Shown here: in pieces, positions 1 to 6,431 of the stretch
Position numbering within the stretch: the first letter of the stretch is position 1
Layout: every line of letters starts with the position of its first letter
Virus record (IMG/VR): IMGVR_UViG_2690316166_000010
Origin: a virus
Taxonomy: Duplodnaviria; Heunggongvirae; Uroviricota; Caudoviricetes
Strand: one strand, 5' to 3'
Length of the DNA stretch: 7,009 nt
The notes under the pieces: model-generated
Database searches by the model: none
The model's input: only the letters and a program-made list of their open reading frames with translations
Told to the model about the DNA's origin: nothing
Translations under genes and position numbers: made by a program

Positions 1-299
1 TTAACTTCAATCTTACTGAACATCGGGAACGTCACCCCCCATGTGGTGGTACAGTAAGTTTTAATCTCTTCATCGCTGCCCGGTTCTTGTTCCAGAAACT
101 GGTTGCACGGGAATCCCAGCACCACAAAACCTCGATCGGCCCAGGCTTTCTGAATATTCTCCAACTGCTCATATTGCGGCGTTAAGCCACACTTTGAGGC
201 GACATTGACAATCAACAGCACATTACCGGCGTACTTCTCCAGCGTGGTCACTTCACCGTCGATATCTTTCACTACGGTCGTCAGAATGGAATCTTGCAT
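1..299 (-). CDS. btuE: Glutathione peroxidase BtuE, N-terminal ~99 codons; gene continues beyond the left window edge
   Basis: Reverse complement of 1..299 translates from ATG (complement of 297..299) as MQDSILTTVVKDIDGEVTTLEKYAGNVLLIVNVASKCGLTPQYEQLENIQKAWADRGF..., which I recognise as E. coli BtuE. AGGAG Shine-Dalgarno (complement of 305..309) lies 5 nt upstream. Confidence 0.9.
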   Translation of the reverse strand, partial: MQDSILTTVVKDIDGEVTTLEKYAGNVLLIVNVASKCGLTPQYEQLENIQKAWADRGFVVLGFPCNQFLEQEPGSDEEIKTYCTTTWGVTFPMFSKIEV

Positions 300-361
300 C
301 GTTTCTCCTGGGTGTGGTCAGTAAAAATCTTAGCTTTTAATCATAGACCGTCTTTTTGCGG

Positions 362-1342
362 CTAACGTCCTGCTTTTAACAATAACCAGATAAACACCGG
401 CGCACCCAACGTTGCGGTGACCACGCCAATAGGCAGCTCTGCGGCAGCTAATGCCAGGCGCGCTACAATATCGGCCAGCAGCACTGCGCTCGCCCCTGCC
501 AGCGCGCAGCCGGGAAGTAATACGCGATGATCGGTTAAACCACACAACCGAAGAATATGTGGGATCACCAGACCAATAAAGCCGATAGCACCCGCCAGCG
601 CCACACTGACGCCAACCATCCAGCCGGTCGCTGCCACCAGCACATTGCGCCAGAACCACAGGGGTAAACCCAGTTGCCGCGCCGAGATCTCGCCAAGTGC
701 TAACATATTCATCGGCCTGGACTGACAACAGATCCACAACAACACGGGGATCAATGCCAGCATCAGCCAGCTTTGCCGCCAGTCTACGCCGCCAAAACCG
801 CCCATCATCCAGTACATCAGCTGACGTAAATCAACAGAGGTGGAAAAGTAGATAGCCCACGTCATTAGTGCGCTACAGATAATCCCTAATGCAACGCCAG
901 CCAGCAATAACCGACTGGTCGAAAGATGACGACGGGCGAAACGTAAGAGTATTAAAGTGATGATAAGCGCGCCAGCAATCGCACACAGCCCTAGCGCCCA
1001 GTTGGGGAGTTGCCCTTGCCCAAGCAATACCGCGGCGATAAGCCCCACGCCTGCGCCGTTAGAGACGCCAAGTAGTCCAGGTTCTGCCAGAGGATTTTCA
1101 AACAACGCCTGCATTACAGCGCCGGATATAGCCAGCGCCGCACCAACCAGCAATACAGCCAGCGTACGTGGCAGGCGAATTTGCCAGACGAACAGTTCGC
1201 CACGAGGAGTAAACCAGTCACCTGGCGAAATCCATTGTTCACCGGCGCAAAGGCTTAAGAGAAGCGCCAGCAGCATCAAAACTGACAGGCATAATAACCA
1301 GCGAATATTTTGTCGCTGTTGTTGGCGGGCAAGTGTCAGCAT
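362..1342 (-). CDS. btuC: Vitamin B12 ABC transporter permease BtuC (326 aa)
   Basis: Six-frame ORF 362..1342 (-) translates as [44 protein letters not shown]...LLLKAGR, which I recognise as E. coli BtuC. Highly hydrophobic polytopic membrane protein; sits directly upstream of btuE as in the btuCED operon. Confidence 0.95.
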
Positions 1343-1398
1343 GGTATCCGTTCTGCTGAAGTGTCATGGCGTTGATTTTACGGTGACTCTTCGACAGT

Positions 1399-1425
1399 GA
1401 AAAGAAAAAAGGCCGCAGAGCGGCC
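1399..1425 (-). terminator. Rho-independent terminator acting on leftward (minus-strand) transcription
   Basis: Perfect inverted repeat GGCCGC (1411..1416) / GCGGCC (1420..1425) with 3-nt loop. On the minus strand it is followed by TTTTTTCTTTTC (complement of 1399..1410). Lies downstream of the minus-strand ORF ending at 1535 and upstream of the btuC start. Confidence 0.7.
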
Positions 1426-1534
1426 ATAAACACAAACAAAAATCAATAAGTTAGGTAATTATCAAAGACTTACAGACACACAAAAACACAGCCAACCACA
1501 ACAAATAACAGAGATGTGGTCAATTTGTGGATCA

Positions 1535-2089
1535 TCAGCCAACAAATTTAGCAACAAATACAGCAACCGCCGCTGTGAAAATGGTTGTGCACACTGGCAC
1601 AATAATGCCACTCCAACGCCACTTCGTATTATCATCAACCTTGTCAAACCGCCGATTCATCTCATCCATAATCTTGTCAAAGCGTTTATCCATCGCTTCG
1701 GTAAGCTCACCCTTCAGGCTGTTAATGTCTGATTTGAGCTGCTCTTTCAGGTTAGCTGTATCAGATTTAAGCTCACCTTTCAGATTCGCAATATCGCATT
1801 CAAGATCACCTTTCAGATGTGCTATGTCTGCTTTGAGTTCACCTTTCACCTCACCAACATCGGCTTTAGTTGAGAGGTTTGTAGTGCGTTCAGCAAGCGT
1901 CGCAAGGTCGTTTCTTGTTAGCGATAAATCACCTTCGAGCCGCTCAATTCGCCTTTCAAGTTTATCTGACATTCCGCCTCCACTACTGCCGCCATCGCCA
2001 CCATGATAAAGCACATCACGCTCAGAATGCGACACACTACCTGCTGAATTACCGAAAAGATTTCTTGCTACATTACCCATTATCACCAT
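1535..2089 (-). CDS. Tail-anchored coiled-coil protein with five 11-residue (hendecad) repeats and a C-terminal transmembrane helix; hypothetical prophage cargo protein
   Basis: ORF 1535..2089 (-). N-terminal Gly-rich stretch (GGDGGSSGGG), then consecutive 11-aa units (VKGELKADIAH / LKGDLECDIAN / LKGELKSDTAN / LKEQLKSDINS / LKGELTEAMDK), then C-terminal hydrophobic segment WSGIIVPVCTTIFTAAVAVFVAKFVG. A more likely start is ATG at complement of 1970..1972 (MSDKLERR...), preceded by GGAGG (complement of 1977..1981) with 4-nt spacer, giving 145 aa. Terminator downstream at 1399..1425. Confidence 0.65.
   Translation of the reverse strand: MVIMGNVARNLFGNSAGSVSHSERDVLYHGGDGGSSGGGMSDKLERRIERLEGDLSLTRNDLATLAERTTNLSTKADVGEVKGELKADIAHLKGDLECDIANLKGELKSDTANLKEQLKSDINSLKGELTEAMDKRFDKIMDEMNRRFDKVDDNTKWRWSGIIVPVCTTIFTAAVAVFVAKFVG
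1705..1869. repeat. Five imperfect tandem copies of a 33-bp unit inside the coiled-coil CDS
   Basis: Units at 1705..1737, 1738..1770, 1771..1803, 1804..1836 and 1837..1869 share a conserved core CTTTCAG(G/A)T and GATTT(G/A)A ends (e.g. GCTCACCTTTCAGATTCGCAATATCGCATTCAA). Each encodes one 11-residue protein repeat on the minus strand. Confidence 0.85.
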
Positions 2090-2333
2090 CCTGCGCTTTG
2101 TCTTTCTCCAACCACTTCAGCACCGCAGACGTACGATAAAGGCTCAGGTAACCACAATTCAGGCAATGCAGCGTGTAATAAGTTTTGCGCATATCAGGTA
2201 TGCTCTTAACATCACCCAAAAAAGCATAAGATACATAATGCTTTATGTTCTCTTTAATTAACTCACTCTGTTCCTCCAGGGGTAGATTGTTAAAATTTTC
2301 TGGTTTCTTATTTTTATCCCAGCAAAGATCCAT
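2073..2333 (-). CDS. Hypothetical protein, 86 aa if it starts at the visible ATG; the true 5' end may lie in the masked region
   Basis: Minus-strand reading frame open from the N-run down to stop TAA (complement of 2073..2075): MDLCWDKNKKPENFNNLPLEEQSELIKENIKHYVSYAFLGDVKSIPDMRKTYYTLHCLNCGYLSLYRTSAVLKWLEKDKAQDGDNG. AT-rich DNA. Its 3' end overlaps the 2089 start of the coiled-coil gene, suggesting an operon. No convincing Shine-Dalgarno at the visible ATG (2331..2333). Confidence 0.35.
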   Translation of the reverse strand: MDLCWDKNKKPENFNNLPLEEQSELIKENIKHYVSYAFLGDVKSIPDMRKTYYTLHCLNCGYLSLYRTSAVLKWLEKDKAQDGDNG

Positions 2334-3156
2334 ACTTTCTGGAACAGATAATCNNNNNNNNNNNNNNNNNNNNNNNNNNNNNNNNNNNNNNNNNNNNNNN
2401 NNNNNNNNNNNNNNNNNNNNNNNNNNNNNNNNNNNNNNNNNNNNNNNNNNNNNNNNNNNNNNNNNNNNNNNNNNNNNNNNNNNNNNNNNNNNNNNNNNNN
2501 NNNNNNNNNNNNNNNNNNNNNNNNNNNNNNNNNNNNNNNNNNNNNNNNNNNNNNNNNNNNNNNNNNNNNNNNNNNNNNNNNNNNNNNNNNNNNNNNNNNN
2601 NNNNNNNNNNNNNNNNNNNNNNNNNNNNNNNNNNNNNNNNNNNNNNNNNNNNNNNNNNNNNNNNNNNNNNNNNNNNNNNNNNNNNNNNNNNNNNNNNNNN
2701 NNNNNNNNNNNNNNNNNNNNNNNNNNNNNNNNNNNNNNNNNNNNNNNNNNNNNNNNNNNNNNNNNNNNNNNNNNNNNNNNNNNNNNNNNNNNNNNNNNNN
2801 NNNNNNNNNNNNNNNNNNNNNNNNNNNNNNNNNNNNNNNNNNNNNNNNNNNNNNNNNNNNNNNNNNNNNNNNNNNNNNNNNNNNNNNNNNNNNNNNNNNN
2901 NNNNNNNNNNNNNNNNNNNNNNNNNNNNNNNNNNNNNNNNNNNNNNNNNNNNNNNNNNNNNNNNNNNNNNNNNNNNNNNNNNNNNNNNNNNNNNNNNNNN
3001 NNNNNNNNNNNNNNNNNNNNNNNNNNNNNNNNNNNNNNNNNNNNNNNNNNNNNNNNNNNNNNNNNNNNNNNNNNNNNNNNNNNNNNNNNNNNNNNNNNNN
3101 NNNNNNNNNNNNNNNNNNNNNNNNNNNNNNNNNNNNNNNNNNNNNNNNNNNNNNNN

Positions 3157-3776
3157 ACACGGCGCTGCTCCAGTGCCGCTACCTCGCCCCATCGCGCCCC
3201 GGTCGACAGAAGGATTTCGACGGCCAGCCGTTCATCGGGATTTTCAGCCAGTGCATCCAGCAACTGAACACATTCAGACTTACTCAGATATCCCATTTCA
3301 CGCTCGTTAACCTTCATTCCTTTAAGGCCTTGAACGGGGTTATCGTTAAGAAAATGGCCGGATGAGATGAGTGCGGTAAACATCGCGCTTAACGCCCCAA
3401 TCTCTCGATTTATGGTGCTGGGCTGTATCCCCTGCTCTATCCTGGACACACGTAGCTCGGTGAGCATCGTTGTATTAAGTTTATGCACGCACGGGTCATC
3501 CATTGCCTCACTCAAGCGCAGCAATTTAAGGCGCGTGTTATGCCCTGACTTCATTAGCTGGCCGTGGTATTTCCACCACAAGTCAATAAGCACTGACAGC
3601 GGACGGCGATCAATGGAGTTTCCTTTCCACTCATTGTTATGCTGTTGCGCCAGCACCCACCGCTCATATAAAACTGCATCCGATTTCGTTTTAAATTTTT
3701 TGCGAATGCGTTTGCCTTTACGCCCCTCAGGACGCATGTCAAGAAGATACCCTCCCGGAATTGATTTTATGCTCAT
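3157..3776 (-). CDS. int: P2-like phage integrase (tyrosine recombinase), N-terminal ~206 codons visible; 3' end hidden in N-run 2354..3156
   Basis: From ATG at complement of 3774..3776 the frame reads MSIKSIPGGYLLDMRPEGRKGKRIRKKFKTKSDAVLYERWVLAQQHNNEW...LSTGARWGEVAALEQRR. This closely parallels the phage P2 integrase N-terminal region as I recall it (GRKGKRIRKKF, DDPC, QGIQPSTINRE, LSTGARWGE motifs). The 617-aa six-frame ORF is a chimera across the N-run. Confidence 0.85.
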
Positions 3777-3825: not shown

Positions 3826-4137
3826 TTAGCCGGGCTGTGTGCCAGTCTTGCGGGATTTTTGAGAAGACGATGTGTTTTCTGGCCCATCAGGGGAGAGAGA
3901 AGGACTGATCTGCCCAGCAGCCTCATTTGTTTCGTTACTCATCAACCACGTAGTGTATTTTTTAAATTCCGGGTGCATTGTGATTTTCAGTAAAACCTCC
4001 GTTCCCACACCTCGAATACCAGTCTCGTATTGCTTAACCGTACCAACCGCAATACCTATTGAATCCGCGAACTTTGCCTGACTAAGCCCCTCAGATTCTC
4101 GAATTGCTTTTAGCTTCTTTGATATCTCTATTGACAT
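3826..4137 (-). CDS. C: P2 C-like immunity repressor (103 aa, helix-turn-helix)
   Basis: ATG at complement of 4135..4137, preceded by AGGTG (complement of 4144..4148). Product MSIEISKKLKAIRESEGLSQAKFADSIGIAVGTVKQYETGIRGVGTEVLLKITMHPEFKKYTTWLMSNETNEAAGQISPSLSPDGPENTSSSQKSRKTGTQPG resembles the P2 C repressor as I recall it (FTKYTLWFMTNQ...GQIAP...SGQKTG) in length and motifs. Position between int and a divergent cox-like gene fits. The six-frame ORF start at 4239 is an upstream extension. Confidence 0.8.
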   Translation of the reverse strand: MSIEISKKLKAIRESEGLSQAKFADSIGIAVGTVKQYETGIRGVGTEVLLKITMHPEFKKYTTWLMSNETNEAAGQISPSLSPDGPENTSSSQKSRKTGTQPG

Positions 4138-4232
4138 GGTGTGCACCTGAATACTATATTGGTTATCAGTTGAGTACCACTTGACGCTACAAAGAGCCAC
4201 AAATAGCACCAGATTGAATAGGTTATCACACC
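4138..4232. promoter_or_regulatory. Divergent switch region between the repressor and cox-like genes (candidate Pc/Pe promoters and operators)
   Basis: 95-bp intergenic region between divergently oriented repressor (start 4137, -) and cox-like gene (start 4233, +). Contains direct repeats TATTGGTTATCAG (4157..4169) and AATAGGTTATCAC (4217..4229) sharing the 8-mer GGTTATCA. TTGACG -35-like hexamer at 4181..4186 (+). TATAGT -10-like hexamer on the minus strand (complement of 4153..4158). Hexamer assignments are tentative. Confidence 0.55.
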
Positions 4233-4511
4233 ATGGCAAAAGTCCTTAACACATACGAACAAGCGGATTTTGAGCGTTTGGCGGCGTTCTACCCATACCG
4301 TAATGAACATGGGCTACCGGTACTTGAAGAAAGCCTAGAGGATTATGCGAAACGCACAAATCAAAGCATTCTCGCTGTAAGAAGGCAGGCTGATAGATCG
4401 GTAATTCCCGTTACTCAAGAAGGAAGAAACACAAAACGCAAAGTAAATCTCTTCGCAATTTTCCTGAAAACCATCAGAAACGCAGAGAAATACGTGCAGA
4501 TGACAAAATAA
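4233..4511 (+). CDS. cox: Cox/Apl-like excisionase and transcriptional regulator (92 aa)
   Basis: First gene of the rightward operon, divergent from the repressor as in P2 and 186. Product MAKVLNTYEQADFERLAAFYPYRNEHGLPVLEESLEDYAKRTNQSILAVRRQADRSVIPVTQEG... The segment YAKRTNQSILAVRRQADRSVIPV resembles the DNA-binding region of P2 Cox as I recall it (FAKLIGKSTGAVRRMIDKGKLPVI). Confidence 0.6.
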   Translation: MAKVLNTYEQADFERLAAFYPYRNEHGLPVLEESLEDYAKRTNQSILAVRRQADRSVIPVTQEGRNTKRKVNLFAIFLKTIRNAEKYVQMTK

Positions 4512-4525
4512 CGAGGTGTCATTTT

Positions 4526-5036
4526 ATGCTGAAGCAACGCCGTAATTTTTGTACCGGAACAGAACGCCACGCTAACCGTTTCACTACCAGTGCATCACGC
4601 AGCAACATCCGCTACAGCCTGAGTGATACACACGCAACGCCGGATGGCTACCCAGTAAAACAAATCGGCGAGCACGCCTGGCTGATTGAGAAAGCTGGAA
4701 TCGTGATCCACAAATGCCCACGCAATCCGTTTACCGGAAACCGCATTTTTGCACTGAGCTGTGGCGACAATCAGTTCGGGCAGGATTTCACATTATACGA
4801 AGCACTTCGCACGGTTGATCGTCTGCTTCGCGGGCAAAGTTTTATTAAACAGGCTGATNNNNNNNNNNNNNNNNNNNNNNNNNNNNNNNNNNNNNNNNNN
4901 NNNNNNNNNNNNNNNNNNNNNNNNNNNNNNNNNNNNNNNNNNNNNNNNNNNNNNNNNNNNNNNNNNNNNNNNNNNNCTTCGCACGGTTGATCGTCTGCTT
5001 CGCGGGCAAAGTTTTATTAAACAGGCTGATTTATAA
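4526..5036 (+). CDS. Hypothetical early-operon protein, interrupted by N-run 4859..4976; about 112 aa if the flanking 54-bp repeat is a gap artefact
   Basis: ATG 4526 preceded by GAGGTG about 8 nt upstream. Frame open to the N-run: MLKQRRNFCTGTERHANRFTTSASRSNIRYSLSDTHATPDGYPVKQIGEHAWLIEKAGIVIHKCPRNPFTGNRIFALSCGDNQFGQDFTLYEALRTVDRLLRGQSFIKQAD. The same final 18 codons recur after the gap, followed by L and stop TAA (5034..5036). Several Cys/His residues; no family recognised. Confidence 0.5.
4805..5030. repeat. Perfect 54-bp direct repeat flanking the 118-nt N-run
   Basis: 4805..4858 (CTTCGCACGGTTGATCGTCTGCTTCGCGGGCAAAGTTTTATTAAACAGGCTGAT) is identical to 4977..5030. The N-run lies exactly between the two copies. 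Confidence 0.9.
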
Positions 5037-6157: not shown

Positions 6158-6431
6158 NNNNNNNNNNNNNNNNNNNNNNNNNNNNNNNNNNNNNNNNNNN
6201 NNNNNNNNNNNNNNNNNNNNNNNNNNNNNNNNNNNNNNNNNNNNNNNNNNNNNNNNNNNNNNNNNNNNNNNNNNNNNNNNNNNNNNNNNNNNNNNNNNNN
6301 NNNNNNNNNNNNNNNNNNNNNNNNNNNNNNNNNNNNNNNNNNNNNNNNNNNNNNNNNNNNNNNNNNNNNNNNNNNNNNNNNNNNNNNNNNNNNNNNNNNN
6401 NNNNNACATCTGTAACAAGAGGATTGCCGCA

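Follow-up and report, generated by a model that had tools for sequence, protein, structure and literature searches.

The btuC-ihfA locus and the genes beside it

The window, by which we mean the whole stretch of 7,009 nucleotides that was analysed, begins in native Escherichia coli chromosome and ends 5.6 kb into a prophage. The native part, 1..1425, consists of a truncated btuE, btuC and 83 nt of the btuC-ihfA spacer, and was found in all 5426 complete E. coli genomes; accessory sequence starts at 1426. The features of the window are listed below, with coordinates and, where it applies, strand.

1..299, minus strand: 5' part of btuE, native, truncated at the window edge and colinear with btuE of strain RM8426 (L001 18649..19200)
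362..1342, minus strand: btuC, vitamin B12 ABC transporter permease, a 326-aa ORF annotated as btuC in all matching genomes
1343..1400: btuC-proximal native spacer, the same as in the empty site
-35 hexamer 1403..1398 and -10 hexamer ending at 1375, minus strand: candidate btuC promoter, proposed from its match to the consensus
1401..1425: attachment core (common core O of attL), AAAGAAAAAAGGCCGCAGAGCGGCC, identified as an exact 25-nt direct repeat, by terminator scan and by RNA fold
1426..1534: putative integrase-proximal arm of attP (P' in the lambda convention), missing in empty sites, conserved beside differing cargo and a compositional outlier
1441..1453, plus strand: candidate IHF site AATCAATAAGTTA, matching the consensus WATCAANNNNTTR; the SE11 variant AATCAACAAGTTA also fits
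1460..1472, plus strand: second candidate IHF site TATCAAAGACTTA, matching the consensus and identical in SE11 and RIVM_C039227
1515..1533, plus strand: tandem candidate integrase arm-type sites TGTGGTCA and TGTGGATC, a TGTGG pair spaced 11 nt start to start and a GTGG-N7-GTGG match
1535..1972, minus strand: cargo gene for a 145-aa coiled-coil protein (RefSeq DUF1640/CCDC90) with a C-terminal hydrophobic segment
2073..2353, minus strand: second cargo gene, for a 166-aa hypothetical protein (phrog_4293), of which the 3' part is readable and the remainder falls under an N run; colinear with L001 20974..21474
3157..3776, minus strand: 5' two thirds of a P2-type tyrosine integrase gene, its 3' part under the N run 2354..3156; colinear with L001 21477..22454
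3826..4137, minus strand: C-type immunity repressor, 103 aa, HTH_3
4233..4511, plus strand: 92-aa gene in cox position, divergent from the repressor gene; phrog_11533, function unknown

Small early genes follow the 92-aa gene. The four readable segments of the window follow the order of the prophage of E. coli O26 strain RM8426 and share 99.7-100% identity with it. That prophage continues with replication endonuclease A, ParM, a complete P2-type late region, ogr and hok/gef. The same family of late genes is found in RM8426, SE11 and RIVM_C039227, namely those for portal, terminase, GPO scaffold, P2-family capsid and gpM, for tail sheath and tube, gpE and the baseplate proteins V/W/J/I, and ogr, which together make up a P2-family late set. 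A phage-inducible chromosomal island (PICI) or satellite, as an integrase, a repressor and small divergent genes might suggest, was considered and rejected on the strength of this full late-gene set in colinear genomes.

The RM8426 prophage also carries several accessory genes: ParM and a partition protein after the replication gene (L001 28149..29424), a serine O-acetyltransferase in the Z/fun position (L004 5015..5587), a 500-aa PIN-domain protein between gene D and ogr (L004 12822..14324), and a hok/gef toxin gene beside the far att arm, convergent with ihfA (L004 15019..15159). Some of these slots are filled by other genes in SE11 and RIVM_C039227.

Three N runs interrupt the window (2354..3156, 4859..4976 and 6158..6405) and break the colinearity with RM8426, which is otherwise 99.7-100% identical. 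The first has 803 N against 580 nt in RM8426 and the third 248 N against 188 nt, while the second is flanked by a 54-nt duplication (4805..4858 = 4977..5030) that is present in RM8426 as a single copy with no gap. These runs look like gaps left in scaffolding where contig ends overlap, or like masking that changed the length, rather than biology. They hide part of the integrase and cargo genes. Given the lack of colinearity, the prophage of the window could differ from that of RM8426 or be defective.

The two cargo genes between the arm and the integrase gene gave Pfam hits that were all of coiled-coil type and below the curated cut-offs. A role in defence or virulence was rejected, the PADLOC matches to LmuB, ZorA and LeoBC being weak and likewise of coiled-coil type. 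The open frame of the DUF1640-like gene encodes 184 aa from an ATG at 2089 and would overlap the upstream gene (2073..) by 17 nt, against a RefSeq start at 1972. The content of the slot varies: RIVM_C039227 has one 131-aa protein there (L003 20433..20828), and SE11 has two other hypothetical proteins (L005 1857..2656). The slot looks like a small variable cargo locus between an arm and an integrase gene that are both conserved.

The integrase shows the Pfam domains Int_N (1.5e-28) and Phage_integrase (1e-19), and tblastn against the Int proteins of P2, Wphi and fiAA91-ss aligned it over 100% of its length with 48.6-48.9% identity (E about 1e-81), as is characteristic of a P2-type enzyme. In the phage collection, no match to it exceeds 56.5% identity. 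For the 92-aa protein next to the repressor Pfam gave no hit, and neither a Cox nor an excisionase domain can be recognised; it matches phrog_11533 only. From its position this protein is a candidate switch protein and excision directionality factor. In the 95-nt interval between the repressor gene and the 92-aa gene, a direct repeat (ATTGGTTATCA / ATAGGTTATCA) occurs at 4158..4168 and 4218..4228, 60 nt apart, and an inverted repeat links 4128..4143 and 4227..4242. By analogy with the P2 switch, the direct repeat may serve the C-type repressor as an operator pair.

The breakpoint and the attachment core

In the prophage-free strain 2013C-3181 (L002), which provides the empty site, btuC has ihfA 100 nt upstream on the same strand. 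In the window, the ORF list contains no ihfA beyond btuC. When 1100..2340 was compared with the 5426 complete E. coli genomes by megablast, all of them matched up to 1425, and only 23 matched at least 80% of the query. The breakpoint, at 1425/1426, is therefore sharp: homology to 2013C-3181, as to the 5426 genomes, goes no further, and related genomes have a conserved empty site, as expected of an attL.

To locate the core, a three-way comparison set the window against the empty site of 2013C-3181 and the far junction of the RM8426 prophage (L004). To the left of the core the window equals the empty site, and to its right the far junction equals the empty site. Exact copies of AAAGAAAAAAGGCCGCAGAGCGGCC occur at 15424..15448 of the RM8426 far junction and at 3302..3326 of the empty site, and the identity between the window and the far junction is exactly 25 nt, without extension at either side. 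The core is repeated at both prophage ends, exactly in RM8426 and SE11 and as a single-base variant in RIVM_C039227; a direct core repeat identical to attB is thus present in near-identical genomes, the far repeat and intact ihfA having been read from genomes 99.7-100% identical over the window. The two copies in RM8426 are 35,098 nt (35.1 kb) apart. The far one is separated by 17 nt from the stop codon of ihfA, which is intact and has pheT and pheS behind it; SE11 and RIVM_C039227 too have an intact ihfA at the far junction. The integrase gene is near the junction, about 1.15 kb from the core in RM8426.

These results bear out the essentials of the earlier note, which had been made from the letters of the window. 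It had read the interval 1343..1534 as a prophage-chromosome junction that displaces ihfA from btuC, with no IhfA-like coding sequence in view; P2-family prophage genes do lie beyond the point at which chromosomal homology stops, ihfA is about 35 kb away in RM8426, and the absence of its coding sequence from the window was confirmed. The alignment to a prophage-free ihfA-btuC region that it had proposed gave the breakpoint itself. It had also placed the att core in this interval, and the core is indeed within 1343..1534; its narrower suggestion of 1426..1534 did not hold, since the three-way comparison assigns the core to 1401..1425, and the direct repeat of part of 1426..1534 that was to be sought at the other prophage end is absent from the far junction of RM8426.

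The core as the terminator of ihfA

Read on the minus strand, the core is a hairpin (1425..1411, GGCCGCTCTGCGGCC) followed by a T-tract (1410..1401, TTTTTTCTTT). The stem has six G-C pairs and the loop 3 nt, with TTTTTTCTTT directly after it. The predicted RNA fold of the hairpin has a free energy of -12.3 kcal/mol (z = -3.5), and none of 200 shuffles was as stable. In the empty site this structure stands 17 nt past the ihfA stop codon, so that a GC-rich hairpin with an adjoining U-tract is found 3' of a gene on the same strand, as in rho-independent terminators. Judged by sequence and fold, 1401..1425 comprises the whole intrinsic terminator of ihfA, which is read on the minus strand. The earlier note had described a terminator following btuC; the hairpin is real, but it is upstream of the btuC start codon and points at btuC, and it is therefore not the terminator of btuC.

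In RIVM_C039227 a G-to-A change occurs in the hairpin loop (GGCCGCAAAGCGGCC), in both copies of the core (L003 20311..20335 and L006 ~4306..4330). The presence of the variant in both copies indicates that the core tolerates it and that the att copies were either homogenised or matched at integration, and it makes the variant uninformative on the position of the crossover.

The C/A-rich stretch as an attP arm

Directly after the core lies a stretch of unusual composition. Positions 1426..1510 contain 48 A, 19 C, 12 T and 6 G in 85 nt, and no other 85-nt segment of the window is poorer in G or richer in A+C; as low a G content is reached in only 3 of 5504 sliding windows, each of which overlaps these positions. 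The description of this stretch in the earlier note as almost devoid of G was accurate. The block 1426..1534 is kept in SE11 and RIVM_C039227 despite different cargo, with 6 of 109 positions differing in SE11. In these two genomes homology ends directly after 1534, right behind the second TGTGG repeat.

Two matches to the IHF consensus occur in the 7-kb window, both in the arm, against 0.32 expected from shuffles of the whole window; the arm is A-rich, so that the local chance of a match is higher. The far arm has one more match, at a distance of 3 nt from the core (L004 15408..15420). The tandem TGTGG repeats also have a counterpart there: the pair TGTGGACA / AGTGGAAC at L004 15368..15386 has the same 11-nt spacing and orientation and is the sole GTGG-N7-GTGG match across 25 kb of L004. 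A full-text literature search for TGTGGACA returned unrelated primer sequences only. The arm consensus of P2-type systems is tgTGGaCa (PMC3448106), and repeats that resemble it are found on both sides of the core, so that by sequence resemblance the arrangement is of P2 type. As to the substitutions in SE11 and RIVM_C039227, a small sample, those within the IHF motifs are at N positions, and those among the TGTGG repeats are in the spacers and spare TGTGG itself.

Considering the conservation of the arm, the IHF matches, the TGTGG repeats in both arms and the positions of the substitutions, we regard 1426..1534 as most likely a functional attP arm with candidate IHF and integrase sites rather than spacer DNA. 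Binding of IHF and integrase to these motifs is predicted from the consensus matches.

Another repeat, CAACAAAT, occurs three times, at 1499..1506, 1540..1547 and 1552..1559, the last two as part of a 12-nt tandem (CAACAAATTTAG / CAACAAATACAG) at 1540..1563. As these two copies are inside the 3' end of the cargo gene, which is not conserved in SE11, they are probably not related to the att site.

Occurrence of the prophage at this site and prior publication

The uninterrupted spacer is present in 5118 of the 5426 complete E. coli genomes, including K-12 MG1655, while the integrase-side junction was found in 304 and the far junction in 297. The prophage lineage is thus carried by about 5.6% of complete E. 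coli genomes; O26, O103:H2 12009, O145 and O157:H7 are represented, with STEC strains among them. Since the empty and occupied counts together leave hardly any genome, this type of attP is essentially the sole occupant of the site. In species-representative genomes, among which there is one E. coli representative, exact-pattern scans for the integrase-side junction and for the far arm with the core found neither, so that this collection gives no sign of the attP in species other than E. coli.

An insertion of this kind has been reported before. The SE11 genome paper (Oshima et al. 2008, DNA Res 15:375, PMC2608844) lists in its Table 2 a P2-like prophage, PP_SE11-4, as lying "between btuC and ihfA", with a 25-nt duplication and the coordinates 1,928,706-1,964,507; the paper gives the site and the length of the repeat only, without analysis of the att site. 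In SE11 (NC_011415) we located the core copies at 1,928,706..1,928,730 and 1,964,508..1,964,532, which coincide with the published bounds. The insertion site and repeat length are accordingly already known, and in this respect the finding is correct and ordinary; the remark of the earlier note that no known att core is recognisable in the interval does not hold in view of that publication.

Comparison with known prophages and phages

PP_SE11-4 is one of the closest known systems. It occupies the same site between btuC and ihfA with the same 25-nt duplication, is full-length at 35.8 kb, and has the same gene order (att, cargo, int, C, 'cox' ... ogr, hok, att). It differs in carrying two unrelated hypothetical cargo proteins in place of the DUF1640-like and 166-aa proteins of the window.

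The P2/Wphi system shares the type of integrase (Int_N plus catalytic domain, aligned at full length) and the arrangement of int near attP followed by a divergent C/cox-position pair. In that system the attP core lies between arm-type direct repeats, and the tgTGGaCa-like tandem repeats and IHF matches described above suggest a similar layout here. P2-type integrases mostly target intergenic sites, and their core-binding domain is the variable part (PMC3448106); in keeping with this, the insertion in the window is intergenic and not in a tRNA gene. The core sequence and the chromosomal site differ, however, P2 and Wphi being inserted at positions 2165238 and 4104392 of MG1655 (PMC3448106), and the Int proteins are 48.6-48.9% identical. 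The window further differs in having two cargo genes between the arm and int and in a cox-position protein without detectable similarity to the Pfam Cox family. In P2 one arm has the IHF site and the opposite arm the Cox boxes, whereas in the present case IHF-like matches are found in both arms. With regard to Cox boxes, no k-mer longer than 8 nt is common to the P' arm and the intergenic region between C and 'cox'. The integrase is thus a P2-type enzyme with, judging from these comparisons, its own target specificity.

A different relationship is seen in the early region. From about window position 4560 onward the prophage resembles P88-like phages (Xuanwuvirus, Peduoviridae; Escherichia phage P88, NC_026014), with 95-97% identity from the DUF4761 gene to the replication endonuclease gene. 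In contrast, the att-cargo-int-C-'cox' module (L001 20327..23238, window 1426 to about 4560) is unmatched by megablast in 50,697 phage records. Sequence comparison thus identifies a module swap, that is, a P2-family prophage whose integration module is exchanged relative to P88-like phages, which presumably integrate elsewhere. A megablast search with 1426..2340 against the same 50,697 records also gave no match, and no circular or free-phage record with this attP is present in that collection. The integration module is known only from prophages.

Alternative explanations of the junction

Three other explanations of the junction were weighed. The stretch beside the breakpoint is a compositional outlier, and att regions are often AT-rich, which might place the att core inside the C/A-rich 1426..1534 and reduce the terminator to adjacent host DNA. 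We consider this next to impossible, because neither the empty site nor the far junction contains anything from 1426 on, the identity being confined to 1401..1425, and because the published coordinates of the SE11 duplication coincide with the same 25 nt in NC_011415 (PMC2608844). Nor is it at all probable that this lineage had the interval and the genes downstream of it natively, without integration, and that ihfA was lost or relocated by some other rearrangement. The window does contain only one junction, but the uninterrupted spacer of 5118 of the 5426 genomes, the roughly 300 occupied genomes with both junctions, each bounded by the same core, and a content that amounts to a complete P2-type phage genome all speak against such a history. 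A native locus in prophage-free strains is what the earlier note had named as grounds for abandoning its view, and the sequence from 1426 onward is missing from those 5118 genomes.

It is improbable too, if somewhat less so, that the element in the window is a degraded remnant or a satellite-like island at the same att site. The visible part is 5.6 kb long, and N runs that differ in length from RM8426, one with a 54-nt duplication, point to a fragmentary source assembly. Against this, the four readable segments are 99.7-100% identical to the full-length RM8426 prophage and in the same order, and all three of the examples inspected at the site, RM8426 (35.1 kb), SE11 (35.8 kb) and RIVM_C039227, are full-length.

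We therefore prefer, with a probability of roughly 93%, to read 1401..1534 as attL (B-O-P'), the integrase-side junction of a P2-family prophage of about 35 kb that was inserted by a tyrosine integrase into the 100-nt ihfA-btuC spacer.

A model of integration and its significance

Under the attL reading, the phage attP would hold the same 25-nt core as the host spacer, attP being the far arm …AATCAATCAGTTATTG joined through the core to ATAAACACAAAC…, and attB being the uninterrupted spacer. Recombination of the phage core with the host core would then duplicate the terminator, given that attP supplies the same 25 nt. One copy would stay 17 nt behind the intact ihfA at the far junction. The other would stay ahead of btuC and behind the cargo and int genes of the phage, which read toward btuC. 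The 58 nt from the core to btuC would remain as in the empty site, including the promoter-like match whose -35 hexamer overlaps the edge of the core. The putative IHF bending sites (1441..1453 and 1460..1472), the tandem integrase arm sites (1515..1533) and the mirror set in the far arm may together form the intasome. In this model strand exchange would take place inside the core, and the duplicated terminator would have an insulating effect.

The identity of the core with a complete terminator may also be more than incidental. It is conceivable, though we hold it to be doubtful, that the phage copy terminates the phage's own int/cargo unit in both attP and attL, that the dyad (GGCCGC-AGA-GCGGCC) provides the core-type integrase sites, that integration is scarless and that the system has a distinct recombination specificity.

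For annotation, which is where the result mainly matters, the exact prophage boundary is fixed at 1425/1426 and the att core at 1401..1425. A candidate map of the attP arm is also provided for a catalogued integrase specificity, and such integrases are sometimes useful as orthogonal genome-engineering tools. Should the tentative proposal on the core be true, the set of Int, attP and the 92-aa protein would represent a biochemically uncharacterised specificity, no isolated phage in the collection having an Int more than 57% identical, and a possible orthogonal integration tool. For the host, the insertion leaves ihfA and the upstream region of btuC intact, and integration would, if the same proposal holds, be transcriptionally scarless for both genes.
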